Below are positions 10,617-47,847 of a stretch of DNA of 64,000 bases, piece after piece. Each line of letters begins with the position of its first letter. Position 1 is the stretch's first letter. The notes beneath the pieces are model-generated. The model ran no database searches. It was not told the DNA's origin and saw only the letters and a program-made list of their open reading frames with translations. The translations under genes and the position numbers were made by a program. This stretch comes from Oligoflexales bacterium. GTDB taxonomy: Bacteria > Bdellovibrionota_B > Oligoflexia > Oligoflexales > RGVZ01. The DNA lies in contig CANFEB010000009.1 in NCBI GenBank assembly GCA_947445775.1, positions 403-64,402 on the forward strand. The letters are read 5' to 3'.

Positions 10617-10640
10617 AAAAAATCCTTTTCACAAATCGCT

Positions 10641-18184: not shown

Positions 18185-18263
18185 GCTGACAGTAAATTTT
18201 CGCTATCTGCGCTACCTGCGGAACTTGTTGAACACATACGTTGAACATCCATGGAGGAAATTC

Positions 18264-19193: not shown

Positions 19194-19210
19194 GGGAGGC
19201 AAGGGAATAA

Positions 19211-19975
19211 ATGAGCGCTGTATTGACCATTGCCAAAAGAGACATCAAATCGTATTTCGCGTCGCCAAAAGGTGGCGCGATCCTGTTCTTTTTTCTGATC
19301 CTGATGGGATCCTTCTTCCAGAACTTTGTGGTTAGCTACGTAGAGTATGAACAACGCGCTGCTTCGATGGGCGGTCAGGCACCGACCCTTGAACAGTTGC
19401 TCCGGGCATTTTTCTACAACCTTAACTTCATCCTCGTGCTGATCGTCCCCGCCGTAACCATGGCATCTTTCTCTGAGGAAAAGCGCAATTCATCCCTTCG
19501 CCTTCTCCAAACGGCACCCATCAAGGCCATCGAAATTGTGATGGGCAAATTTCTGGCAACAGCTGGAATGATGGGAATTGTTTTGCTGGCGGCTTCGGTA
19601 TATCCGCTTTATCTGGCCAAGTTCGGCAACCCAGATACCGGAGTCATTGCGACTTCCATGCTGGGAATGTTTCTACTGATGTGTTCGCAACTAGCCTTTG
19701 GCTTGTGGATCTCTTCCATGACCAACAACCAGTTCATGGCGTTTCTGTTCACGATGTTCGGACTTTTCTTGCTTCTCGTCTTGAACTGGCTGGCCCCGTC
19801 ACTGAGCGGCGGAGGAGTCGCCGAGACAATCATCAAGTACATCGCCTCAACGGACCATCTGGACGTGTTTCTGAAGGGCATGCTCTCCGTCAGCAACGTG
19901 GCCTACTTTCTTTGTTTCACGGCACTCTTTTTATTCCTAACAAATGTTTCACTCGATTCAGAGCGCTGGAGGTAA
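19211..19975 (+). CDS. ABC-2 type transporter permease, GldF-like
   Basis: 254 aa with six hydrophobic segments, positioned between a GldA-like ATPase and a GldG-like protein. Confidence 0.8.
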   Translation: MSAVLTIAKRDIKSYFASPKGGAILFFFLILMGSFFQNFVVSYVEYEQRAASMGGQAPTLEQLLRAFFYNLNFILVLIVPAVTMASFSEEKRNSSLRLLQTAPIKAIEIVMGKFLATAGMMGIVLLAASVYPLYLAKFGNPDTGVIATSMLGMFLLMCSQLAFGLWISSMTNNQFMAFLFTMFGLFLLLVLNWLAPSLSGGGVAETIIKYIASTDHLDVFLKGMLSVSNVAYFLCFTALFLFLTNVSLDSERWR

Positions 19976-19981
19976 TTGCCC

Positions 19982-21625
19982 ATGAGACCAGATCTACTTT
20001 TAATTCCATTTGCATCTGTCTTGGTGGCAGCGATTTCAACTGCCGTCGCCAAATCATTTCCTGCCATTACCTGGATCAAATACGGGGGATGGCTATCGGC
20101 CCTGGGGTTGATCGCCCTGTGGGTGGTCCTCGATCTCGCCAATTTCAAAGCGATGTTTGCGCGCAAAGGCGCGAAGTACGGCGCTAGTTCAGGTCTCGTA
20201 GTCCTCATGACGGTCTCGGTGATCGCGGCCATTGCCGTTGTAACCTCGCGCCCGCGCTTCGACAAAAACTTTGATCTGACACGTTCCCAAGCAAACACCC
20301 TTGCGGAGCAGTCGATCAAGATCATCCAAAACATCGAAAAGCGAAATGCCGAGGTTGAGGTTCTTGCCTTCTTTCAAGATCAAGAAAGCAAGAAACAGTT
20401 TCAAGACATTCTCGGCCTCTATGCCAGCAAGGGCGCTAAATTTAAGGTCGAGTACATCGATCCGAACCGGGAGCCCACCAAGGCGATCGGAGAAAAACTG
20501 ACTTCTGGCAATACAGTGATTTTCAAACTTGATACCGGCGGAGTGAAGCAGGAAGCCCGCATCACCACCTTTAACGAAGAGAAGATCACCAATGCTTTGG
20601 TCAAAGTCTTGAAAGACAAGGCAAAGCAGATCTACTTCACCAAGGGTCACGGAGAAAGCGCCCTTCGTGGCACGGACGCTGCTGGCATGAACGTGATGGC
20701 GGTGGAACTTGAGGGCAACAAGTACGACTTAAAGGAACTCTCCCTCCTCGAAGAGGCGAAAGTCCCTGAATTAGCTGATCTGGTTGTCATTGCCGGACCC
20801 AAGTATGATTTCAAGGTGGAGGAAACCCGCTTCCTTGAAGATCATCTCAAGCGCGGTGGTGCCTTGATGGTCATGGTTGAGGCCATGGTTCCAGTCCCGA
20901 CCCTCAATGGTCTGCTAGAAAAATATGGCATCAAATTTTCGAATGATCTTTTGATCCTCAGACCAGATGATCCCCGCACGGTCTTCCTGGGCCAGAATAA
21001 TGCGATTGTCAGTGACTTTGACGACCTGAGCCCGGTCACGAAAGACTTTGCGGCCCAATCGAAAGTCGCTGTGATCATGCCAGGGTCAAGGTCTGTCAGT
21101 GAGGTCACGGGCAATCCAGCTGGAATGAAAGTTTCCTTGGTTGCCAAAACTGCACCGGTTATTATCAAGGTCAAAAACGTCAACGGTCGCGGCGACGTCG
21201 GCGGCAATATTGGGAGCGACCGTATTGAAACCGGAACCTTCCCGGTCATGGCTGTTGCAACGGGCAGGGCCTCTGCGCCTGAGACGGCTAAGGCCGACGG
21301 GCTAAACCCAAAAGACAACAAAGACGCGAAGGAGCCCATGGAGGCGGGGGGCAAAGAAATCAGGGTAGTGGCGGTTGGATCATCACAGTTTGCCACCAAC
21401 CAGTCGGTCAACGGGCAAGAAAATCGGGACCTGTTCTTGAATGCCATCAGCTACCTGATTCAGGATGAAGATTTCATCTCGATTCGCCCGAAAGATGTGA
21501 CGAAAAGCGCTCTCAACATCACCTCGGGCTTTAGCCAGTTGCTGCTACTTGGATTGTCGTGGATTTATCCGTTTGTCTTCCTTGCAGGGGGACTGTTGTT
21601 CTGGATGAGGAGGCGCCAAGCGTGA
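19982..21625 (+). CDS. GldG-like ABC transporter auxiliary component (ABC_transp_aux family)
   Basis: N- and C-terminal TM anchors flank a large soluble domain. Gene order A-F-G. ATG at 19982 is preceded by GGAGG. Confidence 0.7.
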   Translation: MRPDLLLIPFASVLVAAISTAVAKSFPAITWIKYGGWLSALGLIALWVVLDLANFKAMFARKGAKYGASSGLVVLMTVSVIAAIAVVTSRPRFDKNFDLTRSQANTLAEQSIKIIQNIEKRNAEVEVLAFFQDQESKKQFQDILGLYASKGAKFKVEYIDPNREPTKAIGEKLTSGNTVIFKLDTGGVKQEARITTFNEEKITNALVKVLKDKAKQIYFTKGHGESALRGTDAAGMNVMAVELEGNKYDLKELSLLEEAKVPELADLVVIAGPKYDFKVEETRFLEDHLKRGGALMVMVEAMVPVPTLNGLLEKYGIKFSNDLLILRPDDPRTVFLGQNNAIVSDFDDLSPVTKDFAAQSKVAVIMPGSRSVSEVTGNPAGMKVSLVAKTAPVIIKVKNVNGRGDVGGNIGSDRIETGTFPVMAVATGRASAPETAKADGLNPKDNKDAKEPMEAGGKEIRVVAVGSSQFATNQSVNGQENRDLFLNAISYLIQDEDFISIRPKDVTKSALNITSGFSQLLLLGLSWIYPFVFLAGGLLFWMRRRQA

Positions 21626-22989
21626 CCTTGAAACCTCAAATCAAAACAGCCGCTCTCCTTTTCGGCGTCCTACTCGTTTTGGGCGGGCTTGCCAGCTGGG
21701 ATGAATGGCAAACCAAGCGTGACGGCAAGAAAAAGGAGACTGAAAACCTCCTGCTTGCGATCGAGCCGGAAAAGATCGTTGGAATCGAATTCTCCAACCG
21801 GGAGTCCAAGGACCCCGTGAATATTTCGATGTCTAAAAGTGAAGGCAAGTGGGCCATCTCAAGTCCAGTAAGTGTCGCCGCTGACCAGCAGGCTGTGGAC
21901 AACCTGTTAACAACCCTGAGGGACTATAAGTTCGAAAAGGTTGTGATTGAATCAAACGCTGACCTGGCGGCATTCGGTCTGGACAAACCCCGGCGTGTTA
22001 TCCAGCTGAAAACCGAAAAAGGACCGCTGACACTTCTGGTTGGCGCCAATGCACCGGTTGGATATTCGGTTTACGCCTCCATTGAGGGAACAGGTAAAGT
22101 TTATGTTGGCAGCCAGCACCTTGCCGTCTCGACTGGCAAGTCGCTCCACGACCTACGCAATAAGGCGCTCTTGACGCTGGATCCGGCTCAAGTAACCCAG
22201 TTGGAGCTGATTCGTCCCGGGCAACCTTCAGTGACGATAGCCAAGGACACGGCAGGATCCTTTGCCATCATCAAGCCGGAGGCCCTTCAGGCAGATCAGA
22301 CGTCGGTCCGAAATTTTCTGGATGAAATTGCCAAGGCAAACGCCACGGCGTTTTTTGATAATCCAGATCCCAAGCTCAAAAATTCATTCAACGGCCGTGG
22401 ACTGGCTGAAATTCGCTTGAAATTAGCCGATGGCAAAGCAACCAATCTGAAATTTATCGAAGCCGATAAAAAGGTGCATGCATGGGCTGGTGGCAGTGAA
22501 GCTGTTGCCCAGCTAGCTGATGATGTCAAAACCAAGATTGCAAAAACAGCCGCCGACTTTCGGGACCGCAAAATTTTTAGCTTTGCCGGCGATAAAGCCA
22601 TGGAAGTGGTTTTGGACGGCAAGGCTTATAAAAAGAATGCTGGTGATTGGCACGCAGCTGACGATGCGACCAAACCTGCTCCGCAAATCCGTTCACTTTT
22701 GGTGGACTTGGAATTTGCCAAGGCCTCCGAGATCTTTGCCCTGAAGGACAAGGCTGTTGTGGATTCCACCGCTCTTGCCGCCGCTCATTCCCTGAAGATT
22801 TCTTTCGACGGTGGTGCCACGCCTCTCGAGATCAGCCTTTGGGAGAAAAAGGGATCGCCAGAATCCTGGTTGCTGAATCATTCGGAGTCAAAGGCCAAAA
22901 AAATCGCGTATGCGGTCAGCAAGTCCTCACTGTCGGCGATTGAGCCGCCAAAAGAAGCGCCTGTGCTTCCGACTCCTGAGCACAATTAG
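21622..22989 (+). CDS. DUF4340-like protein (partner of GldG-type ABC systems)
   Basis: GTGA overlap with the GldG-like stop and a GAGGAGG SD. N-terminal anchor followed by a repetitive beta-rich domain. Family call rests on context and general resemblance. Confidence 0.55.
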   Translation: MTLKPQIKTAALLFGVLLVLGGLASWDEWQTKRDGKKKETENLLLAIEPEKIVGIEFSNRESKDPVNISMSKSEGKWAISSPVSVAADQQAVDNLLTTLRDYKFEKVVIESNADLAAFGLDKPRRVIQLKTEKGPLTLLVGANAPVGYSVYASIEGTGKVYVGSQHLAVSTGKSLHDLRNKALLTLDPAQVTQLELIRPGQPSVTIAKDTAGSFAIIKPEALQADQTSVRNFLDEIAKANATAFFDNPDPKLKNSFNGRGLAEIRLKLADGKATNLKFIEADKKVHAWAGGSEAVAQLADDVKTKIAKTAADFRDRKIFSFAGDKAMEVVLDGKAYKKNAGDWHAADDATKPAPQIRSLLVDLEFAKASEIFALKDKAVVDSTALAAAHSLKISFDGGATPLEISLWEKKGSPESWLLNHSESKAKKIAYAVSKSSLSAIEPPKEAPVLPTPEHN

Positions 22990-35681: not shown

Positions 35682-36452
35682 ATGTTTGCCATCGCTAATT
35701 TTTACCGCTTTGTATCTTTGGAGAACTTGCCGGAAATCAAGTCCGCCATCGAACACCTAGCCGGCGAAAAAGGCCTCTTTGGCACAGTCCTCCTGGGAAG
35801 CGAGGGAATCAATGCGGGCTTGGCTGGGTCCAACCCGGAAGTCCTCGCCGAGGTTGTCCGCGCCCTTGGCAACATTCATCCGGGGCTGGCCAACCTTGAA
35901 CCAAAAATTACGCTGGGCGATTCCCAACCCTACAAATGGCTTGAAGTTAAGGTCAAAAAATCCATCGTTACTTTTGCTGGAGACGCCGACCCTGACATCG
36001 AGGCCATTCATTCCGCACCGCACCTGACCCCAGCCCAATTTGACCAACTCATGGCGGAAAAATCCAAAGAAGTCGTCGTGGTCGATACCCGCAATGATTA
36101 CGAATACCAGTACGGTCATTTCGAGGGGGCGGTGGACCTCGGCATCAAAAGCTTCAAAGATTTCCCGAAAGCCTTTCTCGACCGCTACAGCGACGCTAAA
36201 GACCAGACCTACGTCTTTTTTTGCACGGGCGGAATTCGCTGCGAAAAGGCTGTACCTTGGGCCAATGCCCGGGGTTTCAAAAACGTGTTCCAAATCGAAG
36301 GCGGTATTCTCAAATATTTGGAACACCATAAAAATCAAGCCAGCGCACCTGCAGACCGGTCACGCTACGAGGGCAACTGCTTTGTCTTCGACCAACGCTG
36401 GGCAATTGACGAGCAACTTTCCGAGGCCAGCCACGAACCCCCAAAGTCATAA
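35682..36452 (+). CDS. trhO: Rhodanese-domain tRNA uridine(34) hydroxylase TrhO (YceA/UPF0176 family)
   Basis: N-terminus FYRFV...GTVLLGSEGINAGLAG and the rhodanese active-site loop FFCTGGIRCEKA. Confidence 0.85.
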   Translation: MFAIANFYRFVSLENLPEIKSAIEHLAGEKGLFGTVLLGSEGINAGLAGSNPEVLAEVVRALGNIHPGLANLEPKITLGDSQPYKWLEVKVKKSIVTFAGDADPDIEAIHSAPHLTPAQFDQLMAEKSKEVVVVDTRNDYEYQYGHFEGAVDLGIKSFKDFPKAFLDRYSDAKDQTYVFFCTGGIRCEKAVPWANARGFKNVFQIEGGILKYLEHHKNQASAPADRSRYEGNCFVFDQRWAIDEQLSEASHEPPKS

Positions 36453-36457
36453 CGACT

Positions 36458-37453
36458 TCAGCTTTTTGCAAACTCAATAAATCGCCTCACGATAACTCCA
36501 ACGGGCTCGATTTTAGCGATGCCATCGACGCTTTTACCTGCCTGCCAAAAGTCCTTGTAGGCAGACCCTTTGTGCAAAGACTTCTTCAGTTGCCAGATCG
36601 ACTTCAGGGTATAAAACATGCGCATCCAGTGCTTGGTGCGCGAGTTTTTGAGCAACGCCCTCACAACGGGCCCAGCCTTCAGTCCCATGCTCGCAATAAA
36701 GGGCGTATTAATCACCGACACCGGAACGCCACTGATTTTTTCTGTGGCCACGATATCAGCGGAACTCGCCCGCAGTATTGCGTCTTTGTAATCTTGGTGG
36801 GCCTTGCATTCGGCCGCGGCAATAAATCGCGTGCCCATTTGAACACCTGAGTAACCCATCTTCAGAGCCCGGACAAAGTCCTGCTCGTTGCCAATACCCC
36901 CGGCACATATCAAAGGTTTGCCAAAATCGCGCAACGTCTCCACGAGCCTTTCCGGACTCTCACTGCCCAGGTGCCCGCCGGCCCGGTTGTTGACGCAGAT
37001 AAGCCCGTCAATATCGCTCTCGAGGGCTTTTTCAGTCCATTTCCGGTTGACGACATCGTGATAGACGACCCCGCCAAGTGGCTTCACCCGCTCAACGACC
37101 CAACGAGGATTGCCCAGGGCGGTGATGAAAAAACGCACACCTTCCTCTATGGCTATATCTAGCCATCCCCTCATCAGGTCTTCATAGCGTTTTGCTGATT
37201 TTTCGAGCAAAAGGTTAAAACCGATCGGCTTTGCGGTCAGGGTTCTGATATGGCGGATGCCCGCCCTAAAATCAAAACCATGAACAAAAGTCAATGAAAT
37301 CGGTTGGATAATGCCGATTGCTCCGGCCTCAGATGCCGCCGCAATCAGCTCTGGATTGCTGCACGGGTACATGGCGCCGCAAATAATCGGGTAGGCTATT
37401 CTTGCGTGCCTTGTGAAATCGGTTTCAAGAATAACCGTTTTTTGGTCCAACAT
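36458..37453 (-). CDS. Nitronate monooxygenase family FMN oxidoreductase (NMO/FabK-like)
   Basis: YPIICGAMYPCSNPELIAAASEAGAIGII and GGIGNEQD...GYSGVQMGTRF motifs. ATG at 37453 with a GGGAGG SD. Confidence 0.8.
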   Translation of the reverse strand: MLDQKTVILETDFTRHARIAYPIICGAMYPCSNPELIAAASEAGAIGIIQPISLTFVHGFDFRAGIRHIRTLTAKPIGFNLLLEKSAKRYEDLMRGWLDIAIEEGVRFFITALGNPRWVVERVKPLGGVVYHDVVNRKWTEKALESDIDGLICVNNRAGGHLGSESPERLVETLRDFGKPLICAGGIGNEQDFVRALKMGYSGVQMGTRFIAAAECKAHQDYKDAILRASSADIVATEKISGVPVSVINTPFIASMGLKAGPVVRALLKNSRTKHWMRMFYTLKSIWQLKKSLHKGSAYKDFWQAGKSVDGIAKIEPVGVIVRRFIEFAKS

Positions 37454-37560
37454 GGTTTGATAACCTCCCGTCCCCTGGTGGTGGATGTCCAACATCGAAA
37501 TGACGATGCCGCCTTTCCAGTGTACCGGGTTGAATGCATTTTTCGATAATGAGGAACTAA

Positions 37561-39423
37561 ATGACCAAACCCCGTCAAATAACCACCAGCAGCACTGCTG
37601 AATATTTCTCCAAAAACCTTCAGCAAGTGGGTTTTTCTTCCCCGACCAAGGCTGTCTTGACGACCGTAAAAGAGGCCTTAGACAACGCCCTTGATGCCTG
37701 TGAGGACCATCACATCGCCCCGGACATCAACATCTTGGTGGAAAAAGTTGGCAACGGTTCACTTAAAAATACCGACCGCATCCGGATCCGGGTTGAAGAC
37801 AACGGTCCCGGAATCGACGCGGGCGATATCGCCAAAGTTTTTGGTGAATATTTGGCGTCGTCAAAATTTGGTCGCGGACGTTGTTCTCGCGGCCAGCAGG
37901 GAATCGGCATTTCGGCTGCGACCACCTGGGCCATTCAAACAACGGCCAGGGGTGTTTCGGTCACCACCAAGACCAAAGGTCAGAAAAAGGCCGTCAAATG
38001 TCTAGTTGAAGTCGACATCAAGAACAACAAGGGCATCATTCGAGACAAAGAGGCCGTTGATTGGGAACGCCCTTCGGGCACTGCCGTGGAATTCCTGATT
38101 GACGGGCGCATTCAGCTCAATGGCGAGGCCGGCTTGGTGAATTACCTGCGGGGCAATGTCTTGGTGAACCCGCACATGACCATCAGCTACACACTTCCAG
38201 ACAATGGCACGACCAAAATCGAGCGCGTCACAAAGGATGTTCCGCAGATTCCAGAGGCCACGGAACCGCATCCCCATACTATGAAGCTCGGTGAGTTTAT
38301 TTCCCATGCGCGGCTCTTTGGGAAAATGAAAACGTCCAACTGGTTGAAACAGGGTTTTTCCCGCCTCAACGACAAAATACTCGCAGAAATCTGGAAGGGA
38401 CAAAAACTTGCCAGGGCTCTGCTCGATAAAAGCACCGAGGCTTTGAACGAAAAGGACATCAGCGGAATTTACACTGCTATCCAGAAGGCTCAGCTCCCCC
38501 CGCCATCCACACAGTCGGTCATGTCGATTGGCGAAGAAGCCCTGTCGCTCAGCATCCAGCGCCTTGGTGACGTCGATTTCTTTTCGGTCATCAGCCGCAA
38601 GCCAATGATCTGTGATTTCAAGCCAATTCAGATTGAAGTGGCCGTGGCACGCCTCAAGGATCGCCGGGGCGAAGACCATGACGAGCCAGTTCAAGTATTG
38701 CGTTTTGCCAACCGCGTGCCGCTGCAATTTGACAAGGCCGCCTGTGCCATCGTCAAAGCCATTTCGACCATCAATTGGCGCGCTTATGGAATTAAACAGC
38801 CTCGCGACTCCTTGCCCCAAGGTCCTTATATTGTGGCCGTCAGCATGGTGTCGCCGTTCATCAAGTTCAAAAATGCATCCAAGGAAACCATCGATGCCTC
38901 CGACGAATTGGTCGAGGAGATTCGCCGGGCATTGATGCAGGCCGGACAAAAACTCTCCCGGCACATCAACCGGGAAAGCCGCGTCAACGACCATGAAACC
39001 AAAATCGCCCACATAGAACAATTTGGCCCGATCCTGATCGACGGCTTGGTGCGTCTGACCAAGGCCGACGAGAGTCGCCGCATCAAGGCCACCGAGGGTC
39101 TACGCAAACTTTTGGGCCGAGACGCCCTTGAAAGCGAAAAGGCTGTCAAAGTTGCCAAAGAAAAGAGTGAGGCCGTCGACGCAAAACGCCACCGCATCAA
39201 GATGTTCCGCGAGGAAGATCAAGCCATCGAATCGCGCGAGGCTGAAAAGCGCGCGGCCGCTGATGGTCTAGATGAAGTCGATGCCATCGCATCGGAGTCT
39301 GAGGACTCCGATGATTCTGAAGGTGGCGTTGCCGTAGTGACCGCAAAATCAAAAAAGAAAATCGCCACCAAACAGGCTGGCCAAATCATCAAAAAGCCCG
39401 TCAAAAAAGCCGCCAAAAAGTAG
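37561..39423 (+). CDS. top6B: DNA topoisomerase VI subunit B (GHKL ATPase)
   Basis: Top6B-type N-terminus (AEYFSKNLQQVGF..P.KAVLTTVKEALDNALDA). Bergerat-fold boxes DNGPGI and GQQGIGISA, followed by a transducer-sized region. GAGGA SD. Confidence 0.85.
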   Translation: MTKPRQITTSSTAEYFSKNLQQVGFSSPTKAVLTTVKEALDNALDACEDHHIAPDINILVEKVGNGSLKNTDRIRIRVEDNGPGIDAGDIAKVFGEYLASSKFGRGRCSRGQQGIGISAATTWAIQTTARGVSVTTKTKGQKKAVKCLVEVDIKNNKGIIRDKEAVDWERPSGTAVEFLIDGRIQLNGEAGLVNYLRGNVLVNPHMTISYTLPDNGTTKIERVTKDVPQIPEATEPHPHTMKLGEFISHARLFGKMKTSNWLKQGFSRLNDKILAEIWKGQKLARALLDKSTEALNEKDISGIYTAIQKAQLPPPSTQSVMSIGEEALSLSIQRLGDVDFFSVISRKPMICDFKPIQIEVAVARLKDRRGEDHDEPVQVLRFANRVPLQFDKAACAIVKAISTINWRAYGIKQPRDSLPQGPYIVAVSMVSPFIKFKNASKETIDASDELVEEIRRALMQAGQKLSRHINRESRVNDHETKIAHIEQFGPILIDGLVRLTKADESRRIKATEGLRKLLGRDALESEKAVKVAKEKSEAVDAKRHRIKMFREEDQAIESREAEKRAAADGLDEVDAIASESEDSDDSEGGVAVVTAKSKKKIATKQAGQIIKKPVKKAAKK

Positions 39424-39446
39424 GCTAAAAGAAATAGGAGTCCCCC

Positions 39447-40628
39447 ATGGCGACACGCACAACCAGCGTCCATCCGCGCCGTAAGAGCAAAGAAGACAAA
39501 GTCATTCTCGAGCACAGCCTTGAGCTATGCGAGAAAATGCTGAAAGACTTGGAAGGCGGCAAACGGCCCAAGCTGACCGCAACCAAGTGCGCCCTCGATA
39601 ATTCGATCTACAATAGTAAGGTCGGATTTTTGACGCCAGGATCAAAACGCGTTTCTACCGAACTCAACGTCAGTTCCGTCAAAAAAATGTCGCGCGCTGT
39701 TTTTATGTTGGAAATTCTATTACGCAACATTGAGACGGGCAACGTCAACACGAAGCGCGAGCTCTACTACATCAGTAAGGGTGAGGTGAAGCACAACAAA
39801 TTAATGAAGGCTCTTGATTTTGGGGATCAAAACGAATCAGATTCCGTGGTGGATTTCATTTGCGAAATGCTCGAATGCTACCGCGAAGAAATGAACTGTT
39901 TTGCCAACGATCGGGGCGGCCAGACCTACAGCCAAAACCTCGTCGTAACCGAGCGCTTGCCTGATGGCACCGAGGCCGTGATTGACCTCTCCCAATTGGG
40001 AACGTCACCATTCCAACCGAAAAACCGTCCACAAAACCTGACTTTGAAGGCCAAGGGCAAAATCGACTTCTGCCTCGTTGTTGAGTCAGAGGGCACGGCG
40101 AACACCTTGGTGGCCAACGGTTTCGTGAAGCGTCATAATTCCATCGTCGTCGGTGCTCAGGGCGTACCGTCCAACGCCGTTCGCGGCTGGGTCAAACGAA
40201 TTCAAGACCAGTTGCGAGTGCCCATCTACTTTTTCGGGGACCTTGACGCGTACACCATGCAAAACATTTTCCGGACATTGAAAGCAGGCTCTGCTGCTTC
40301 ACTCATCCGAAATTCCGACTTTTCAGCGCCAGACGTGCGTTTTTTAGGCGTATTGCCAGAGGACATCAAAAAATATGACCTCAATGATTACCCGGTGAAT
40401 GAACGGGATGCCCAGGAAATCCGCGCCCTTAAAAAAGCCCGCGACGCCCTGGCAAATGACCCATTTTTTAAAGATAAAAAGAACAAGGGCCTCTCCGAAA
40501 TCTTGCACTGGCTGATCAACAATAAGAGGCGCTGCGAGCAACAGGCTTTCTATTCGGTCGATCCCCGGGATCCCCAGATGGCCGAAAAAATTATCATCGA
40601 GAAAATCACCAAGGGACATTACGTTTGA
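39447..40628 (+). CDS. top6A: DNA topoisomerase VI subunit A (Spo11 family)
   Basis: Catalytic-Tyr context KRELYYISKG, Toprim Glu (LVVESEGT), GAQGVPSNAVR and a DxD motif (FFGDLDAYT). AGGAG SD. Lies directly downstream of top6B. Confidence 0.85.
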   Translation: MATRTTSVHPRRKSKEDKVILEHSLELCEKMLKDLEGGKRPKLTATKCALDNSIYNSKVGFLTPGSKRVSTELNVSSVKKMSRAVFMLEILLRNIETGNVNTKRELYYISKGEVKHNKLMKALDFGDQNESDSVVDFICEMLECYREEMNCFANDRGGQTYSQNLVVTERLPDGTEAVIDLSQLGTSPFQPKNRPQNLTLKAKGKIDFCLVVESEGTANTLVANGFVKRHNSIVVGAQGVPSNAVRGWVKRIQDQLRVPIYFFGDLDAYTMQNIFRTLKAGSAASLIRNSDFSAPDVRFLGVLPEDIKKYDLNDYPVNERDAQEIRALKKARDALANDPFFKDKKNKGLSEILHWLINNKRRCEQQAFYSVDPRDPQMAEKIIIEKITKGHYV

Positions 40629-43600
40629 CCGCTGTCTACGGCCTTCGCTCGTTTTTAACAGAGGCAGAAAAGGGACTGCATCCTGACACTGCCGCTAATT
40701 CCATTCCGGTCATTCAAGCCCTTGGTTCCAGCGACAGCTTGATCCAACTTGCGGTACTTGGCCTCATGGAAATGCGCCCTGACAACCGCCGCCTGATTGT
40801 CGTTCTCCCCGAATCAAAAGATGTCGGCCATTGGTCCCAGTTTTTGGGCCAGGCCGTGGCTGCCCTGAATTCCGCGCCCGGTGACTCCCGGCCGAAGCTG
40901 CATGCCGCGATTCTTCCATTCTTTTCCGGTTGGGGGGCGGACCGCTTCATCAACCCCGACCAGTCGCGTCGTCAGCGGATTTATGCCTTGGACCTATTGG
41001 CCAGTCCCAACGTCCCATCCATTATAGTGACCACGCTTCAAGCCCTTGGGCAGGCAACGATTTCGCCCGGCGAATTTCGCGAGGGCGCGCTGGACCTTAA
41101 ACTCAACGAAGAAATTGACCAGGACGGTTTATTTTCACGCCTCGAGGACTTGGGCTACCGGAAGGCCAACACTGTTGAGGAAGAGGGCACCTATGCGGCT
41201 CGCGGTGCCATCGTGGACATTTATCCACCGAACCAAGATCACCCCGCGCGCCTCGAATTTCTTGGCGATACGGTTGTTTCCATGCGGCATTTCGATGCCA
41301 AGGACCAGAAATCCACGGGCCCTCTCACGGAACTGACCATCCGCCCAACGGCAGAATTTATAACGCCAGAAAGCAAGCGGCGGGAGCAAACTCAAGACCT
41401 GTACAACTGCCTCTTGGATCAGCCGATTGCCACGAGCGACCGCGACGGCATCATGCACAGTTTCGGAATGGGCATCAGGCCTTCCGGCTTTGACATGTTT
41501 GCCCCCCTCATGCGGCGCAATCGCCGCACCACCGCCATCGACTACATTCAAACGAGTGACTTGATTGTTTTTCCGCGCCCGCGCAGCACGTGCGCTGCTT
41601 CTTACAAGGAACACCTTGAAGAAATCGAAGAGGCCTGGCAGCGCGACGTTGAGTCCAAGCGTCCTTCCATGGCACCTGAAAACCACTTTGCGGCCATGGA
41701 AAACGTTACACTCGCGGCCTTTCCCCTGATTGAATTTGGAAATCCATTTTCAAATCCTGCCGCAAAAACTTTGCGATTTGAAAGCAGAATGGTCTTAGAA
41801 GGAACGCCGGTTTTTTCAAAAGAAAATCCTGTTGAGCTCTTTGACCAATGGGTGGATGCGATTCGTTCGGTATTGAAAAAGGAAGAGGGTTCCATTGCGA
41901 TCCTCGCCCATCATGACGAGCAACTTGATCGGATCTCAAATCTGCTCAGTCACCGCGGAATCGTGCCACAACGCCGCGATGCCCTGCTCCGCAGCATCCT
42001 GTCAGGAAAGGTCGAAGCCGGTGCTGTGGTCATGGGCCTCGGTGATTTGCAGTCCCACGTCTGGTTGCACGACACCAACACGCTTGTTCTACCGGAGCAC
42101 GCTTTATTCGGTGTAAAAAAACGACGGCCAAAACCGCCCTCTGCAAAACTCCAGAACTACCTCAGTTCATTTCGGGATTTGAAACCAGGGGATCTCGTCG
42201 TTCATGTCCAGCATGGCATTGGGCGCTACACGGGCATGATGACCATGAGGGTTGCTGGCCTGACCAATGACTTTTTAGTTCTCGAATACTCGGGCAACGA
42301 TAAAATTTACATGCCAGTTGATCGCCTCAACCTGCTGCAACGGTATAGCTCGGGTGGCGAGGGTGGCCGCGGGATGGTGGACCGTCTTGGCGGACAAATG
42401 TGGGAAAAGAAAAAATCCCGCATCAAATCCGAGATCAAGGACATGGCCGAGGCCCTGTTGAAGGTCCAAGCCGCTCGCGAGATCGCCGACGTGCACCGCT
42501 ACAATCCGCCGGACGACGAATACTTCAAGCTGGAGGCCGAATTCCCCTACGAGGAAACCGAGGACCAGCAAAAGGCCATCGACGATGTCTTTGCCGACCT
42601 GGTCGGGGAAAAACCAATGGACCGTCTCGTCTGCGGCGACGTTGGCTTTGGCAAAACCGAAGTTGCCCTGCGGGCAGCCATGCGTTCCGTCCTTGAGGGC
42701 GACCAGGTGCTGATTCTCGTCCCGACGACAGTTCTTTGCTACCAGCACTACCGCACTTTTTCCGACCGTCTGTCCCGCCACGGAGTGAAAGTCGCTCAGG
42801 TCAACCGGTTCGTTGATGGCAAGACGACCAAAGCCAATCTGGAGGCTCTTGCCCGAGGCGACCTGGATATTTTAATCGGAACCCACCGCCTCCTTTCCAA
42901 AGACATCAAACCCAAGCGCCTTGGCCTTCTCGTGATCGACGAGGAGCAACGATTCGGAGTCGGTCACAAGGAAAAACTCAAAGAAATGCGGGCAAATGCC
43001 CATGTATTGACGCTCACGGCGACGCCCATTCCCCGCACCCTGCACATGTCCATGCTTGGATTGCGAGATATTTCCATCATTGCCACGCCGCCCCAAGAGC
43101 GCCTGTCGGTCAAAACCTACATTTGCCGCTTTGATGAAAGCCTGATTCGCGAGGCCATCTTGAATGAAATCGCCCGTGGCGGTCAGGTGTTCTTTCTTCA
43201 TAACCGTGTGGAAGACATCGAGGAAATGCGCCTCTTTCTCAAAAGTCTTGTTCCAGGAATTGACATCCGCACGGCCCACGGCCAAATGAAAGAACACAAA
43301 CTTGAAGAAGTCATTATCGACTTCATGGAACAAAAATTCCCGGTCTTGTTGTGCACGACGATCATCGAGTCTGGGATCGACATGCCAAACGTAAATACTT
43401 TGATCGTAAACCGGGCCGAGAATTTCGGTCTCGCTCAGCTCTATCAAATCCGTGGCCGGGTTGGCCGATCGTCAATGCAGGCTTACGCCTATTTTATGAC
43501 GGCTGCTGAAGAAACCCTGACCGACGATGGCAAAAAGCGCCTCGAAATCCTGAGTGCCCATCAAGAGCTGGGTGCCGGCTTTCAGATTGCCAGCCATGAT

Positions 43601-44212
43601 CTTGAAATCCGTGGTGCCGGCAATCTTTTGGGCGGCGATCAATCGGGCAAGATCAGCGAAATCGGTCTCGAAATGTATACGGATATGCTGGAAACTGCGA
43701 TTGCCGAGCTGCGTGGGCAGGAGGTCATCGAAAAAATCGACACTGAAATTAGGCTGCCTGTCACGGCATTGATTCCTGCGACTTACATTTCCCACGAGAA
43801 CCTCCGCCTGCAGCTCTACAAGTCCCTCTTTTCGGCCAGCGACGAAGACGACCTAGGGCGCCTCAAACGCGAGACTCTTGATCGCTTTGGCCCCATGCCC
43901 GATGAGCTAACCCGCCTTTTCCGGGTCGCCACATTGAAACGGGGGCTGGCCCAGGCCAAGATGACTTCGCTAGCCGTTGGTGGGCGGAATTTTTACGAGC
44001 TGAAATTCGGCTCTCTCAACGAGGCCCAGATTGATACCATTTTGGATGCGGTCCGCACGCATCCTGACAAATACCGCCTGACCCCGGATGGTAAGCTTTA
44101 CCTCTATGCTCAGACGTTTGCTCAACCTGCACCTGCCCAACAAGACCAAATGATCGCAGAACTGGTAACATTGGTGGATCCCCTGGCCGAAGCCATCTCG
44201 CAAAGGAGCTGA
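40625..44212 (+). CDS. mfd: Transcription-repair coupling factor
   Basis: 1195 aa with a CarD/TRG-like region, DEAD/DEAH helicase motifs (GDVGFGKTEVA, VIDEEQRFGV) and a TRCF C-terminal domain. TTG start overlaps the top6A stop (TTGA). Confidence 0.92.
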   Translation: MTAVYGLRSFLTEAEKGLHPDTAANSIPVIQALGSSDSLIQLAVLGLMEMRPDNRRLIVVLPESKDVGHWSQFLGQAVAALNSAPGDSRPKLHAAILPFFSGWGADRFINPDQSRRQRIYALDLLASPNVPSIIVTTLQALGQATISPGEFREGALDLKLNEEIDQDGLFSRLEDLGYRKANTVEEEGTYAARGAIVDIYPPNQDHPARLEFLGDTVVSMRHFDAKDQKSTGPLTELTIRPTAEFITPESKRREQTQDLYNCLLDQPIATSDRDGIMHSFGMGIRPSGFDMFAPLMRRNRRTTAIDYIQTSDLIVFPRPRSTCAASYKEHLEEIEEAWQRDVESKRPSMAPENHFAAMENVTLAAFPLIEFGNPFSNPAAKTLRFESRMVLEGTPVFSKENPVELFDQWVDAIRSVLKKEEGSIAILAHHDEQLDRISNLLSHRGIVPQRRDALLRSILSGKVEAGAVVMGLGDLQSHVWLHDTNTLVLPEHALFGVKKRRPKPPSAKLQNYLSSFRDLKPGDLVVHVQHGIGRYTGMMTMRVAGLTNDFLVLEYSGNDKIYMPVDRLNLLQRYSSGGEGGRGMVDRLGGQMWEKKKSRIKSEIKDMAEALLKVQAAREIADVHRYNPPDDEYFKLEAEFPYEETEDQQKAIDDVFADLVGEKPMDRLVCGDVGFGKTEVALRAAMRSVLEGDQVLILVPTTVLCYQHYRTFSDRLSRHGVKVAQVNRFVDGKTTKANLEALARGDLDILIGTHRLLSKDIKPKRLGLLVIDEEQRFGVGHKEKLKEMRANAHVLTLTATPIPRTLHMSMLGLRDISIIATPPQERLSVKTYICRFDESLIREAILNEIARGGQVFFLHNRVEDIEEMRLFLKSLVPGIDIRTAHGQMKEHKLEEVIIDFMEQKFPVLLCTTIIESGIDMPNVNTLIVNRAENFGLAQLYQIRGRVGRSSMQAYAYFMTAAEETLTDDGKKRLEILSAHQELGAGFQIASHDLEIRGAGNLLGGDQSGKISEIGLEMYTDMLETAIAELRGQEVIEKIDTEIRLPVTALIPATYISHENLRLQLYKSLFSASDEDDLGRLKRETLDRFGPMPDELTRLFRVATLKRGLAQAKMTSLAVGGRNFYELKFGSLNEAQIDTILDAVRTHPDKYRLTPDGKLYLYAQTFAQPAPAQQDQMIAELVTLVDPLAEAISQRS

Positions 44213-44214
44213 CC

Positions 44215-45225
44215 ATGATTGACCGCCCATTCAAGCGCCGCCTGATTATCGGTGGAATCTGTTTTGGAGCGGGGGTGGCCTCGTGGCTTGCGGTCAATGG
44301 GCACAAGATCAGTGAAGTCCGAAACAGGGACATCCCGACATTTGACAATCTGGAACGCAACTCCACCCTGGTCGAGGTTGCTGGCACCCCGATTGACAGT
44401 GCTGACCTTGAATGGGAGTACAACCTTCATGTCAAGGGCATGACTGGGCCTGGCGAGATGACACCCATTCCGGATTTGGGCAACAAACTTGAAAAAGAAC
44501 TTGGCCCCCTTAAACAACAGCTCCTTTCCGGCATGATTGAACGCAAGCTTTTATTCAAATATTTGCAGCAAGACCGCAAATTCGACCTCGAAGAACCCTC
44601 GCGCTACACGGGATGCCTGAAAGAGTGGCAAGCCGTAGTGGAAACAAGCCCAGACTTGTTTCCGAGCAACCGATCAAAGGAACTTCTAAAAAACCGGCTT
44701 TGTGAACGCTCCATCATCCTGCAATACACCGAGGCCAGGATTTTCCCGTTGGTAGAGCCGAGCGACGCCCACATCACCGAGTACTACAAGAATCACCTGC
44801 CTGAATTCAGAGTCCCCCCCCGGGCGACGGTCCATCAGGTGGTGTTAGTTGACGAACCGACCGCAAAAAGGGTCAAAAAAGAAATCACGCGATCCAATTT
44901 TCAAGAATTAGCCCGCAAATATTCCATAACTCCGGAGGGCGAGGCTCAAGGCGGGAAGGTTGGCCCATTCACCAAGGGTGATGTTCCGGCCGTATTTGAT
45001 GTGTCCTTTGAAATGCAACCTGGGCAAATCAGTGAGATTCTCAAGTCGACATACGGATTCCACATCATTATGCTGCAAGAAAAGCGGCCAAAGCGTGAAC
45101 TCAGCTTGAAAGAAGCCACCCCGAAAATTCGGGCCATCTTGTCCGCTAAACGCAAGGATGAGGAATATCGAAAATGGCTCGAGTCTGCGCTCAACTCCAT
45201 ACCAATCACCTCGCCCCGATCTTAA
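44215..45225 (+). CDS. Membrane-anchored parvulin-type peptidyl-prolyl isomerase (PpiC/PrsA/PpiD-like)
   Basis: N-terminal TM anchor and a C-terminal parvulin motif (GGKVGPFTKGDVPAVFD...STYGFHIIML). AGGAG SD. Confidence 0.8.
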   Translation: MIDRPFKRRLIIGGICFGAGVASWLAVNGHKISEVRNRDIPTFDNLERNSTLVEVAGTPIDSADLEWEYNLHVKGMTGPGEMTPIPDLGNKLEKELGPLKQQLLSGMIERKLLFKYLQQDRKFDLEEPSRYTGCLKEWQAVVETSPDLFPSNRSKELLKNRLCERSIILQYTEARIFPLVEPSDAHITEYYKNHLPEFRVPPRATVHQVVLVDEPTAKRVKKEITRSNFQELARKYSITPEGEAQGGKVGPFTKGDVPAVFDVSFEMQPGQISEILKSTYGFHIIMLQEKRPKRELSLKEATPKIRAILSAKRKDEEYRKWLESALNSIPITSPRS

Positions 45226-46163
45226 TTATTTCTGCCGCATGGCTGTCACTACCGGCCATGGCTGCAGAGGTTTTGGTGGATCGGGTTTTAGGCTCCGTCA
45301 ACGGCCAACCGTTTCTGTACAGCGAAGTTGCCACCAAGGTGCAAATCGGACCGTTGGTGACTGTTTCTGAATTTCCGGCTACGGAGCAATCGCCGCCCTT
45401 TGAGCAGGCGATGCAGGACACCATCAATTTTCAGCTGATCCAACAAAAAGCTAAGGAACTGGACCTTGACGTATCAGATGATGAACTGGAGGCCGAAATT
45501 GGCGAATTCCTGAGCGGCAAGGGTTTGGACAAGCGGGGCTTACAAACTTTTTTAGCGAAGGAAAATAAGAGCTACGAAGACTACAAGCTGGATTTTCGCA
45601 ATCAGATCATCCTTGGCCGATTTCAGCGAAGGGTCATTGCTCCTCTGATCAAGGTAACCGACAAGGATCTAGAAACCGCCTATTTAAAGCGCTCGGGGGC
45701 AGCCTCTGATCTCGTCGAACTCATCCTCCGCCAGATTGTCATCCAAATTCCGGAAGGTTCCGGACAAGTAATCGCCGAAGCAAAGCGGGCCTTGGCCCTG
45801 GAGGCCCGCAGCAAAATCCAAGCCGGAGTTTCCTTCGAGGATGCCGTCAAACTTTATTCTGATGATCGTGAAAAAGCCGGCAACGGCGGGTTGATGGGGG
45901 GCGTTCGTCTGAAGGATCTGACCCCGGCCATTCGCAAGGAAATCGAGCGCTTGGACGTAGGCGGCGTCACGGCCCCGATCGAGATTGGGTCCAGCATCCT
46001 GATTTTCAAGGTTGAGGATCGCAAGGTCACTTTGGGCAAGGACATGCAGAAGAAAAAAATTGAATTAGAGGCTGAAATTCGGAGTGCCGAATTAGCCAGC
46101 CAAACTCGCCGGTGGCTTGCAGAGCAGCGTCAGCGTTCGAAGATCGATGTTATCGTGAAGTAA
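45174..46163 (+). CDS. SurA-like periplasmic chaperone / parvulin PPIase
   Basis: Signal peptide (…LSLPAMA/AE), a SurA_N-like helical region and a parvulin domain (GGLMGGVRLKDL…SSILIFKVEDR). GAGGAA SD 8 nt upstream of the ATG at 45174. Confidence 0.75.
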   Translation: MARVCAQLHTNHLAPILIISAAWLSLPAMAAEVLVDRVLGSVNGQPFLYSEVATKVQIGPLVTVSEFPATEQSPPFEQAMQDTINFQLIQQKAKELDLDVSDDELEAEIGEFLSGKGLDKRGLQTFLAKENKSYEDYKLDFRNQIILGRFQRRVIAPLIKVTDKDLETAYLKRSGAASDLVELILRQIVIQIPEGSGQVIAEAKRALALEARSKIQAGVSFEDAVKLYSDDREKAGNGGLMGGVRLKDLTPAIRKEIERLDVGGVTAPIEIGSSILIFKVEDRKVTLGKDMQKKKIELEAEIRSAELASQTRRWLAEQRQRSKIDVIVK

Positions 46164-47244
46164 CTCTGGCGCGCCAACCGTCCCAGATCACGATTCCAAG
46201 CAGCACGAAATTGGCAGCCCACGCGCTAAGCCCTGGCGCTATGCCGCCGCGTCTGCCAAGCGCCAAAAAAGAATTAAGCAGAAACCAGTAACTAAAACCG
46301 ATTGCGAGCGCCAAAAAAATACTCTTGGTGTTTTCAGCAGACCTCTCTGAGGTGTACATGAACTTCAGGCCAAGCAAGCTCATGACTAGGGCGGCAAAGG
46401 GAAATGCCAGCTTTAATTGGTAGTCGACCTTGAGCGGCAGGATATCCCGTCCAGAATTCTCCTCGGCTTTTATTCGAGTCAGTAACTCTTTGCGGCTCAT
46501 CTCATTGGGCAAGCGACGCTCTTTTTGGAGTTTATGAACGTCCACTGGTATTTGAATTACCAGCTGCTCCTTTTGGCTGTGCTTGCTGATATTTCCCTGC
46601 TCATCAAAATCAAGGATGGAAACATTAGAAAGCTGCCAATTGTTGGCCACTCCCATGTTCTTGGCAGAGCCTGCGTCGATCGATTGCAGCGGGCTGAAAT
46701 CAGGGTTCAACTTGGAAATTCTCAGTTGTTGAAAGGCCTGTAATTCATGCTCATATGTACCGAAGCTATAAATCATATTGCCTTGACGAAGCCAGCTCAC
46801 GCCTGGGGCAATCTCAAAGGATGGCACTCCCTCAATCTGGACCTCCTGAACGTAGTGCATCCGCCCGGCGCTGACTGGAACTACGTATTCATTCAAAACC
46901 AGGCCAATCAGGGTAACAACGAGGCCCCCGACAAACAAGGGAGCTCCGATACGGATGGGACCCATCCCTATGGCCCGCATGGCTGTCAGTTCGTTGGTTC
47001 GTCCCAACAAGACCATACAGACCACCGAGGCCAATAAAGCGGCGATGGGCATAGCCTGCAGGATATGCCCTGGCATCTGGTACATGTACATTTTAAAGAC
47101 GAGCTCAACCGACGGCTTATAGCGAGGAAAATAACGGGTAGTTTTATGAATAAAATCAAAGAGTATGAATAAAAAAAGCGTCAGCACCATCGCCCCGGCG
47201 ATGTACTTGAAAAAGTCCTTAAAAATATAAAAAAAGAGACGCAC
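46150..47244 (-). CDS. LptF/LptG family LPS export permease (YjgP/YjgQ)
   Basis: 364 aa with a 3 TM + periplasmic beta-jellyroll + 3 TM layout and an N-terminus typical of the family (FKYIAGAMVLTLFLFILFDFI). Confidence 0.8.
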   Translation of the reverse strand: MRLFFYIFKDFFKYIAGAMVLTLFLFILFDFIHKTTRYFPRYKPSVELVFKMYMYQMPGHILQAMPIAALLASVVCMVLLGRTNELTAMRAIGMGPIRIGAPLFVGGLVVTLIGLVLNEYVVPVSAGRMHYVQEVQIEGVPSFEIAPGVSWLRQGNMIYSFGTYEHELQAFQQLRISKLNPDFSPLQSIDAGSAKNMGVANNWQLSNVSILDFDEQGNISKHSQKEQLVIQIPVDVHKLQKERRLPNEMSRKELLTRIKAEENSGRDILPLKVDYQLKLAFPFAALVMSLLGLKFMYTSERSAENTKSIFLALAIGFSYWFLLNSFLALGRRGGIAPGLSAWAANFVLLGIVIWDGWRARVTSR

Positions 47245-47273: not shown

Positions 47274-47717
47274 TCAGGACTTTTCGGCGCCAGCCTCTGG
47301 CGCTGGCGTAGTCCGGATAGCCGAGGCCATCACGACAGGAAGCCCCTTCTTACCATTTCCTACAATCCCAAGCACGCGGACCTTCTTGCCATTTCGGGTT
47401 CCCAAATCAGGAAGGATGTTGGGGTAACGCGTCAGAACCACAAGCATCCTGGCAGAGTTATCCTCCATGATAAAGAAAGTGTGGTGCTTGCCAGTCTCGA
47501 TAACCTGACCTTCGACCAAGACTTTTTTGCCCCGAAGCTCCTCCAATCCAAGATGGATTTCCTTGAGGGTGATCGGCGCATAGGAAGAAAAGACAAAAGA
47601 CCCGAAACGGCTAAAGACAGCGCGATCCAGTGTGTTCACCAAGGACTCGTCGCCAACACAGGAGGTCAGAACACCCGCAAGCAACACCGTCAGGCCCAAT
47701 GCAGCCGCTTTAATCAT
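47274..47717 (-). CDS. Hypothetical lipoprotein
   Basis: ATG at 47717 is preceded by GGGGAGGGG. Lipobox LLAGVLTSC. 147 aa. Confidence 0.6.
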   Translation of the reverse strand: MIKAAALGLTVLLAGVLTSCVGDESLVNTLDRAVFSRFGSFVFSSYAPITLKEIHLGLEELRGKKVLVEGQVIETGKHHTFFIMEDNSARMLVVLTRYPNILPDLGTRNGKKVRVLGIVGNGKKGLPVVMASAIRTTPAPEAGAEKS

Positions 47718-47783
47718 ACCGCCCCTCCCCGCTGCAATAAATCTGAAAAACGTCCCTCTATAATCTATCAAATCCCGAGGCAT

Positions 47784-47817
47784 AAAAAAAACCTCCCCCG
47801 AACTTTTTCGGAGGAGG
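47784..47817 (-). terminator. Rho-independent terminator after rplQ
   Basis: Minus strand: 11-bp stem (one mismatch) cctcctccgaa/ttcgggggagg, 4-nt loop, T8 run. Located 30 nt after the L17 stop. Confidence 0.85.
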
Positions 47818-47847
47818 CTTACAAAATCGAACAAATATCAGCTAAAA

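Follow-up and report, generated by a model that had tools for sequence, protein, structure and literature searches.

Outside archaea and plants, DNA topoisomerase VI (topo VI) is the least understood of the cellular type II topoisomerases. Among its archaeal representatives, the enzyme of Methanosarcina mazei (Protein Data Bank (PDB) entries 2Q2E and 9O0G) is a preferential decatenase (PMC8837201) and complements E. coli parE(ts), a result cited as unpublished data (PMC11302465); further archaeal structures come from Saccharolobus shibatae (2ZBK) and Methanocaldococcus jannaschii (1D3Y). In bacteria, Allen & Maxwell (2024) listed 17 families bearing topo VI, Pseudobdellovibrionaceae among them, concluded that the archaeal enzyme entered bacteria at least twice, and stated that its role there remains to be established (PMC11302465). 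The topo VI of Bdellovibrio bacteriovorus, Bd2864/Bd2865, was already documented in a 2023 review (PMC11318664; also PMC11302465, Fig. 6). Here, we describe a top6B-top6A gene pair in a 64,000-nucleotide stretch of DNA, hereafter the window, from an Oligoflexales bacterium (assembly GCA_947445775.1, contig CANFEB010000009.1, positions 403 to 64,402 of the forward strand). The class Oligoflexia, to which this order belongs, goes unmentioned in the supplement of the 2024 survey (PMC11302465). An earlier note on the window, made by reading its letters, had described topo VI as sporadic in bacteria with an essentially unstudied cellular role, in agreement with that survey.

The two genes of the pair lie at the following positions of the window:

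37561 to 39423, plus strand: top6B, 620 amino acids (aa), ATG start; DNA topoisomerase VI subunit B with GHKL ATPase, H2TH, transducer and C-terminal extension.
39447 to 40628, plus strand: top6A, 393 aa, ATG start; DNA topoisomerase VI subunit A, Spo11 family.

The earlier note had recognized the hallmarks of both subunits in two neighbouring plus-strand genes, and exact coordinates, profile, sequence and fold searches agree with that assignment. All six motifs it quoted are present, EALDNALDA, DNGPGI and GQQGIGISA in Top6B and KRELYYISKG, LVVESEGT and FFGDLDAYT in Top6A, and the profile search it named as a check yielded matches, well beyond chance, to all four expected models, including the TP6A_N hit whose absence it had named as refuting. 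In Pfam, Top6B matches Topo-VIb_trans (PF09239; E = 8.5e-45, 152.8 bits for a cutoff of 24, aa 315-480) and HATPase_c (E = 3.2e-10, 40.9 bits, cutoff 26.4), while Top6A matches TOP6A-Spo11_Toprim (PF21180; E = 4.3e-39, 134.7 bits, cutoff 24.1) and TP6A_N (PF04406; E = 1.9e-14, 53.7 bits, cutoff 26), each score exceeding the gathering threshold. Top6B also passes the NCBIfam equivalog NF003218, with 489 bits for a cutoff of 274. Sequence searches of the PDB retrieved M. mazei Top6B for the first protein (2q2e_B, 3.7e-76, nearly gap-free over residues 9-487) and M. jannaschii Top6A for the second (1d3y_A, 1.6e-36). The AlphaFold2 model of Top6B was computed on an alignment of 32 sequences and has a mean pLDDT of 69.6, with most of the core at 70-90; the GHKL, H2TH and transducer domains can be recognised in it, as can the stalk helix. 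When this model was compared with the PDB using Foldseek, the best 16 matches were all Top6B chains (E from 1e-37 to 6e-26), with target-normalised TM-scores of up to 0.83 against complete chains; MutL and the ATPase fragments of GyrB/ParE followed at only about 1e-9 to 1e-8. We conclude from Pfam, NCBIfam, the PDB searches and the predicted fold that the pair is a genuine, intact archaeal-type DNA topoisomerase VI. Neither the kind of system nor its presence in the phylum is new, since both have been published for Bdellovibrio and many related proteins from metagenome-assembled genomes (MAGs) are already auto-annotated as 'DNA topoisomerase VI'; the idea that topo VI substitutes for topo IV is likewise published.

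The domains of the two subunits are delimited as follows, those of Top6B after the M. mazei numbering (PMC13040014), which is identical in the window protein over residues 112-214:

37561 to 38262, plus strand: Top6B GHKL ATPase domain, about aa 1-234, with general base E38, Mg2+ ligand N42, the G1 box D80-N-G-P-G84 and the G2 box/ATP lid G111-QQGIG-116.
38263 to 38493, plus strand: Top6B H2TH domain, about aa 235-311, from the alignment to 2q2e_B, with helical segments at 243-309 in the model.
38494 to 39060, plus strand: Top6B transducer and stalk helix, about aa 312-500, with W406-R-A-Y409 (WKxY motif) and the switch lysine K441 in N-A-S-K-E.
39681 to 39896, plus strand: Top6A winged-helix (TP6A_N) domain, aa 79-150; its K-R-E-L-Y-Y motif includes R104 and the catalytic Tyr108 (codon 39768-39770).
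40068 to 40565, plus strand: Top6A Toprim domain, aa 208-373, with metal ligands E213 (40083-40085) and D265 and D267 (40239-40247).

The catalytic residues are intact throughout. In Top6B, E38, N42, D80, G82, G84, G111-QQGIG-116 and K441 are conserved in 100% of 68 Bdellovibrionota sequences, and W406, Y409 and K441 are invariant in the Top6B alignments. The alignment to 2q2e_B runs unbroken across residues 215-317 and thus includes the H2TH domain, whose position between GHKL and transducer sets Top6B apart from the Top6B-like meiotic partners and from type IIA ATPases; the stalk helix spans aa 448-500 in the model. In Top6A, R104, Y107, Y108, E213, D265 and D267 are invariant among 81 sequences. 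The R104-E-L-Y-Y108 segment aligns with R-E-A-Y-Y of M. jannaschii, and the Toprim domain with its ETSG and DGD motifs. We take the second tyrosine, Tyr108, to be the catalytic one, by comparison with Y103 of M. jannaschii and Y135 of yeast Spo11.

Judging from the homologous enzymes of M. mazei and S. shibatae, the window proteins would assemble, with two copies of each subunit, into an A2B2 two-gate enzyme. Binding of ATP would dimerise the GHKL domains through E38, N42 and the G1 and G2 boxes, trapping the transfer duplex, and the transducer, by way of its switch lysine K441 and the stalk helix, would pass the signal to Top6A. In that subunit, the winged-helix Tyr108 would then cut both strands of the gate duplex, with Mg2+ held on the Toprim residues E213, D265 and D267, and the second duplex would pass through the break before religation.

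The genomic setting of the pair is that of a resident gene. The exact Top6A protein occurs on 22 contigs, and on the four that were inspected, from independent samples (two ENA assemblies, one Logan run and one NCBI MAG), the gene order is identical over 21 kb: nuo genes, gpsA, a MoCF-biosynthesis gene, a rhodanese gene, a gene abbreviated NMO, top6B, top6A, mfd, two PPIase/SurA genes, lptF/G, rplQ, rpoA, rpsD and rpsK. The Pfam annotation of these identical contigs bears out the housekeeping neighbourhood that the earlier note had read around the pair, with Mfd, SurA-type PPIases, LptF/G and RpoA with the ribosomal cluster. Its remarks on ribosome-binding sites and base composition hold as well. 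Both genes are preceded by Shine-Dalgarno (SD) sites read from the sequence:

37551 to 37555, plus strand: Shine-Dalgarno GAGGA, 5 nt before the top6B ATG.
39436 to 39440, plus strand: Shine-Dalgarno AGGAG, 6 nt before the top6A ATG.

The GC level is flat along the window. With a GC content of 0.531 and a GC at third codon positions (GC3) of 0.622 for Top6B, and of 0.501 and 0.622 for Top6A, the pair falls within the range of 20 neighbouring genes (GC 0.529 +/- 0.019, GC3 0.605 +/- 0.021), as do its codon-usage cosines (0.92 for Top6B and 0.91 for Top6A; 0.88-0.96 for the neighbours). The composition of the pair is therefore native.

To place the pair in its phylum, we used a scan of one genome per GTDB species, in which 416 stretches encode a Top6A relative; the analyses cover the best 80. 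These 80, with 75-95% identity, all belong to Bdellovibrionota except for some generic or apparently mis-binned labels, and carry names such as Oligoflexales, Oligoflexaceae (Oligoflexus), Pseudobacteriovorax, Bdellovibrionia and Bacteriovoracia. The 120 best homologs in a collection of 5.8 billion proteins are 76-93% identical, and those that are named are nearly all Oligoflexus tunisiensis, Pseudobdellovibrionaceae, Bdellovibrionia, Bdellovibrio sp. or similar, with a few generic or apparently mis-binned entries. MAGs labelled Oligoflexales or Pseudobacteriovorax, of the class Oligoflexia, encode a Top6A 95% and an Mfd 84-85% identical to those of the window. In 80 of 80 loci top6B lies directly upstream of top6A in the same orientation, frequently with a stop/start overlap and nearly always with a gap of -4 to +35 nt, so that the B-A linkage is phylum-wide; the spacer in the window is 23 nt. 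At 50% clustering the clade stands isolated, a statement that rests on identity gaps: identity drops from 54% for its own representative to 33% (152 bits) for the next full-length relative and to 25-30% for the rest. Among the nearest relatives outside the phylum, mostly metagenomic proteins, the one cluster that bears a name comes from a Desulfurococcales archaeon.

Top6A is as slow-evolving as the alpha subunit of RNA polymerase. Six Oligoflexales-like genomes (L012, L013, L015, L017, L044 and L045) share the wider synteny with the window, rpoA being included in five of them. In these, identity to the window is 77-80% for Top6A and 67-69% for Top6B, to be compared with 74-78% for RpoA, 62-67% for NMO, 52-53% for Mfd, 43-49% for LptF/G and 42-46% for SurA, and the Top6A identity rises and falls with that of RpoA from locus to locus. 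The RpoA-like rate and this parallel variation fit vertical inheritance. A dN/dS of about 0.02 for top6A (Nei-Gojobori, against three close relatives, with dS near saturation) reveals strong purifying selection. Taken together, these data identify top6BA as an ancient, vertically inherited and strongly conserved core operon of Bdellovibrionota. Within top6B, an antisense open reading frame (ORF) of 339 aa at 38002-39021 on the minus strand is almost certainly a non-coding shadow, because the sense frame is strongly conserved.

Could the pair instead be cargo of a mobile element, of the topo VIII or Mini-A type or from an integrated plasmid, a recent horizontal acquisition, or a bacterial/archaeal assembly chimera? 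Type IIB enzymes do occur on integrated plasmids (PMC4117785), and some distant Top6BA pairs (L086 and L089) sit among mostly unannotated ORFs. The window, however, shows separate A and B subunits that score as topo VI, in a chromosomal core locus. Topo VIII is a fused B-A polypeptide, whereas the window has two separate genes. No integrase or mobile-element genes were found near top6BA in the annotated window or on the identical contigs, and Top6A identity is at least 75% in 80 of the 80 best-matching Bdellovibrionota genomes. An assembly chimera is excluded since the same 21-kb arrangement recurs on contigs assembled from four independent samples, and a recent insertion is excluded by the native composition, the phylum-wide presence and the identity that tracks RpoA. 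We therefore reject mobile cargo, recent transfer and chimera, whose joint probability we regard as negligible; the earlier note, which had judged by eye that the pair was neither a recent insertion nor a chimera, was right on this point.

We also weighed whether the second protein might be a Top6A/Spo11-like Toprim nuclease acting in defence or programmed breakage, like MksG/JetD of Wadjet or Gabija, rather than in strand passage. Distant Toprim dimers act as nucleases in such systems (PMC13040014), and PADLOC reports a weak, sub-threshold JetD echo on Top6A (14.9 bits, E = 0.0024), confined to the 53 residues of aa 228-280. Against this stands a full Top6B partner, always adjacent, with all ATPase residues and the switch lysine, for which PADLOC gives no defence match. 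Moreover, neither the annotated neighbours nor the gene families that recur in the flanks include SMC, kleisin or other defence genes, and the pair sits in a core housekeeping region and evolves at the slow pace of RpoA, which is not expected of a defence island. On the strength of the PADLOC results, the constant and complete ATPase partner and the lack of SMC-like genes in these neighbours and flank families, a defence-type nuclease is essentially refuted, and we give it very little credence.

Besides its conserved catalytic core, the window Top6B departs from the M. mazei enzyme in a loop that contacts DNA:

38107 to 38133, plus strand: Top6B loop R-I-Q-L-N-G-E-A-G, aa 183-191, at the position of the M. 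mazei KGRR (186-189) T-segment/crossing-sensor loop in the ungapped HMMER alignment to 2q2e_B.

Because the numbering is identical within the ungapped block 112-214, L186-N187-G188-E189 is the counterpart of KGRR, leaving R183 as the only basic residue nearby. In M. mazei, the KGRR loop lies in the T-segment cavity and is described as conserved and essential for relaxation (PMC5922973). Its replacement by LNGE suggests that the sensing of the second duplex may differ from that of the M. mazei enzyme. Among Bdellovibrionota the motif G-R-x-Q-L-N-G-E-A-G hardly varies, and it recurs in the 54% identical sister lineage (L091). Basic loops are found in M. mazei, S. shibatae (K-A-K-S-R), L086, the nearest outsider L085 (R-Y-Q-K-G-L-R) and L088, a locus of archaeal context (R-Y-R-R-S--R). 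A basic loop is likewise missing from L089 and L090, so that a KGRR-type loop is not universal in the Top6B family, of which it is no formal criterion. In the alignments, the remaining DNA contacts, among them the WKxY motif, are retained or changed conservatively, besides two in the stalk, where M. mazei R457 becomes Q463 and K460 becomes S466 (residue list of PMC13040014). From the same list, stalk residues K458, H461 and K465 correspond to K464, R467 and R471, and in the H2TH domain R263 and K268 correspond to K263 and R268, of which K263 is at least 90% conserved and R268 invariant in the 32-sequence Top6B alignment.

The second departure lies at the C-terminus:

39061 to 39420, plus strand: Top6B C-terminal extension, variable among lineages, with a predicted helix at aa 504-577, an acidic patch and a disordered Lys-rich end at aa 591-620; no Ig-like C-terminal domain (CTD).

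Bacterial Top6B proteins have no counterpart of the Ig-like CTD of M. mazei (PMC11302465). In the window, the last 30 residues (591-620) comprise 11 K and no D or E, and the pLDDT falls below 50 over residues 577-620. Conservation collapses beyond about aa 520, and protein length varies from about 550 to 850 aa among lineages, with tails of 25-309 aa; 59% of 68 lineages, that of the window included, end in a Lys/Ala/Pro-rich tail, which reaches a length of about 300 aa. Lineages with a short tail have about 25-40 residues past the stalk; several of these bear the labels Bdellovibrionia or Bacteriovoracaceae. By analogy with the actinobacterial TopA, which like Top6B carries a disordered Lys/Ala-rich tail appended to a topoisomerase, the Lys-rich tail may tether the enzyme to DNA. 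In Streptomyces TopA, such lysine repeats stabilise the enzyme-DNA complex and increase processivity (PMC5714199). TopA is, however, a type IA enzyme, the resemblance implies no homology, and the Top6B tail is absent in about 40% of Bdellovibrionota lineages. We also considered whether the tail might be a general stand-in for the KGRR loop, an idea that is weakened because these tail-less lineages, about 40% of the total, carry the same neutral LNGE loop with no basic tail. The neutral loop and the Lys-rich tail seem to be two unreported lineage traits.

How, then, does this locus compare with the described systems? With the archaeal enzymes, it shares the B-then-A operon, the domain architecture, all catalytic residues (Tyr, Arg and the E/DxD residues; E/N box, G1, G2 and switch Lys), the WKxY motif in the form WRAY and the basic contacts of the H2TH domain. 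Unlike them, it is only about 25-33% identical, has LNGE in place of KGRR, bears an extra helix and a disordered Lys-rich tail instead of the Ig-like CTD, and resides in a bacterial genome that presumably encodes gyrase too. The relatives labelled Bdellovibrio sp. or Pseudobdellovibrionaceae are far closer, with 78-81% identity in Top6A, 64-68% in Top6B and the same gene order. Compared with these, the window belongs to Oligoflexia, order Oligoflexales, near Pseudobacteriovorax; in its clade mfd is joined to the operon, and past the stalk its Top6B continues with a Lys-rich tail of about 100 aa, as opposed to about 25-40 aa in Bdellovibrio sp. ZAP7 (L082) and numerous further lineages with short tails. 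Topo IV (ParC/ParE) would be the functional analogue, an ATP-dependent type II decatenase and relaxase of positive supercoils working beside gyrase, and it shares the GHKL and transducer ATPase module, the Top6B model matching ParE/GyrB ATPase regions at about 1e-8. By contrast, topo IV is a type IIA enzyme whose cleavage subunit is not homologous to Top6A, which cuts with a 4-nt rather than a 2-nt stagger and which has three gates rather than two (PMC11302465).

We consider it likely that the pair encodes a functional type IIB topoisomerase VI, inherited vertically as a core operon of Bdellovibrionota, which most probably does the work of topo IV, unlinking replicated chromosomes and relaxing positive supercoils beside gyrase. 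This role is the most likely because the M. mazei enzyme is a decatenase, the published inventory of B. bacteriovorus comprises gyrase and topo VI without topo IV, and the pair is under the selection typical of a core gene. In the GyrA-box alignment of Allen & Maxwell, B. bacteriovorus appears only among the GyrA sequences and is missing from the species with ParC (PMC11302465, section 14 and Suppl. Fig. S6). For the Oligoflexales bacterium itself, we infer that the enzyme is active, that it is the decatenase, that it is essential and that topo IV is absent from the genome.

Several points weigh against this interpretation. All 17 topo VI-bearing bacterial families have gyrase, and seven of them, five Pseudomonadota and two Terrabacteria, also keep topo IV (PMC11302465), so that substitution for topo IV is no rule. 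The absence of gyr and par genes covers the annotated 64-kb window and the identical contigs. Bacterial topo VI is without enzymatic or genetic data, according to the discussion in PMC11302465, and the crossing-sensor loop is not basic in the window Top6B. Finally, Top6A stays narrowly below the NCBIfam equivalog cutoff, its best model, NF003335, giving 392.2 bits for a threshold of 424 and the other PRK04342 sub-models scoring far lower. We ascribe this shortfall to the distance of the clade from the seed sequences, the next full-length relative being only 33% identical; no feature is missing.

The naming of these profiles deserves a remark of its own. The NCBIfam models NF003337, NF003333, NF003336, NF003332 and NF003334, derived from PRK04342 and modelling topo VI subunit A, are described as 'DNA topoisomerase IV subunit A', and one Desulfurococcales protein bears the same name. 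Such misnamed models can make a genome appear to possess topo IV. The 2023 Bdellovibrio review lists an entry that it calls 'Top IV (Bd0005)' (PMC11318664).

The single alternative that we still entertain keeps the identification as topo VI and gives the enzyme an auxiliary role, in which it would work beside an as-yet-unseen topo IV and not as the sole decatenase; it might be specialised, for example, for resolving many chromosome copies during filamentous or polyploid growth, or for unusually compacted or histone-bound chromatin. In favour of this, the chromatin proteins of B. bacteriovorus are unusual and its growth includes a filamentous, multi-chromosome phase (PMC11318664), and a changed handling of the substrate is suggested by the remodelled loop and the tail rich in lysine. 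On the other side, the ParC-bearing species do not include B. bacteriovorus (PMC11302465), the RpoA-like conservation and the dN/dS value are better fitted by an indispensable enzyme, and the pair is retained in lineages labelled Oligoflexia. Some Oligoflexia lineages are not known to be predatory. We hold an auxiliary role to be unlikely, although it deserves to be kept in mind. Less likely than not is a stronger version of the role in place of topo IV, in which the topo VI of Bdellovibrionota would be a distinct, phylum-specific subtype, at most 33% identical to other Top6A proteins yet conserved like RpoA inside the phylum, that acts as the sole dedicated decatenase, senses the T-duplex differently through its neutral loop and, in many lineages, uses a histone-H1-like Lys tail as a DNA tether.

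Immediately downstream of top6A, the window contains a further gene of the apparent operon:

40625 to 44212, plus strand: mfd, transcription-repair coupling factor, with a TTG start (40625-40627) overlapping the top6A TGA (40626-40628); Pfam CarD_TRCF_RID, TRCF and helicase domains.

Given this T-TGA stop/start overlap, top6B, top6A and mfd look like a single transcription unit, which probably extends to the two PPIase genes that follow. mfd is thus probably co-transcribed with top6BA in this lineage, and is not part of the enzyme. Scans of positions 36300-46400 gave 9 promoter-like sites (5.6 +/- 2.1 in shuffled sequence) and 20 terminator-like sites (15.1 +/- 4.0 expected); neither count rises above background, and none of the sites is sensibly placed, so that the SD sites and the overlap of stop and start are the basis for the operon structure. 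Only the closest relatives of the window (L005-L009) retain the direct top6A-mfd junction. Six more Oligoflexales-like loci have mfd at a distance of about 350-1600 nt downstream, and the flanks of the remaining loci do not contain it. We therefore treat the coupling to mfd as incidental rather than as a clue to function. In a similar way, we looked for a linked accessory gene comparable to plant RHL1/BIN4 by clustering the ORFs within 4 kb of top6BA across the 80 loci; no family occurred in more than 18 of them, and we rejected such a factor.

Other features of the window and of the distant loci are reported here as separate observations. The two PPIase/SurA-type genes after mfd (44215-46163, plus strand; 336 and 329 aa) overlap each other by 52 nt and are kept in related Oligoflexales loci. 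Three ORFs on the minus strand have no Pfam match at E<=1e-5, at 6075-7289 (404 aa), 12505-13272 (255 aa) and 47274-47834 (186 aa); the last lies between lptF/G and rplQ and is called as a 169-aa gene on the identical contigs, again with no Pfam match. At 9324-12368 (minus strand) and 18174-22989 (plus strand) lie a PilB/PilC-like pair (T2SSE with MshEN, T2SSF) and an ABC-2 transporter cluster with ABC_transp_aux (GldG-like) and DUF4340 proteins, which may be related to type IV pili and gliding-type motility. In L085, the nearest relative outside Bdellovibrionota (33%), a 76-aa ORF without Pfam match separates top6B from top6A (1163-1393). In L090, the Top6B of a distant lineage is split into two overlapping ORFs (115-1918), a GHKL part of 261 aa and a transducer part of 352 aa, which means either that the subunit is truly divided or that there is a frameshift, the contig having low coverage (label '2x'). 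Distant Top6B-Top6A pairs, 25-30% identical to the window Top6A, were found in L086/L087 (4392-7119) and L089 (2494-5086). Their contigs, 27-138 kb long, hold almost nothing but small ORFs without Pfam matches, together with genes for a DnaJ, an ERCC3-type helicase and an RNA ligase, and look like large viral or mobile genomes with a topo VI of their own.

In conclusion, our analysis adds to a known enzyme its presence in Oligoflexia, a conservation of RpoA grade across the phylum and two lineage-specific structural traits; the discovery is incremental. In one whole bacterial phylum, top6BA is not a sporadic passenger but a slowly evolving core pair, which fits an indispensable replacement of topo IV. 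It also raises the question of how strand passage is controlled in an enzyme without the KGRR sensor loop. Bdellovibrionota thus provide a well-suited setting in which to study the bacterial role of topo VI, as B. bacteriovorus is cultivable and genetically tractable. Predatory Bdellovibrio are considered as 'living antibiotics' alongside drugs; if ParC/ParE are truly absent, the topo IV arm of drugs with dual targeting of gyrase and topo IV, such as the fluoroquinolones, would be without a target in these bacteria.

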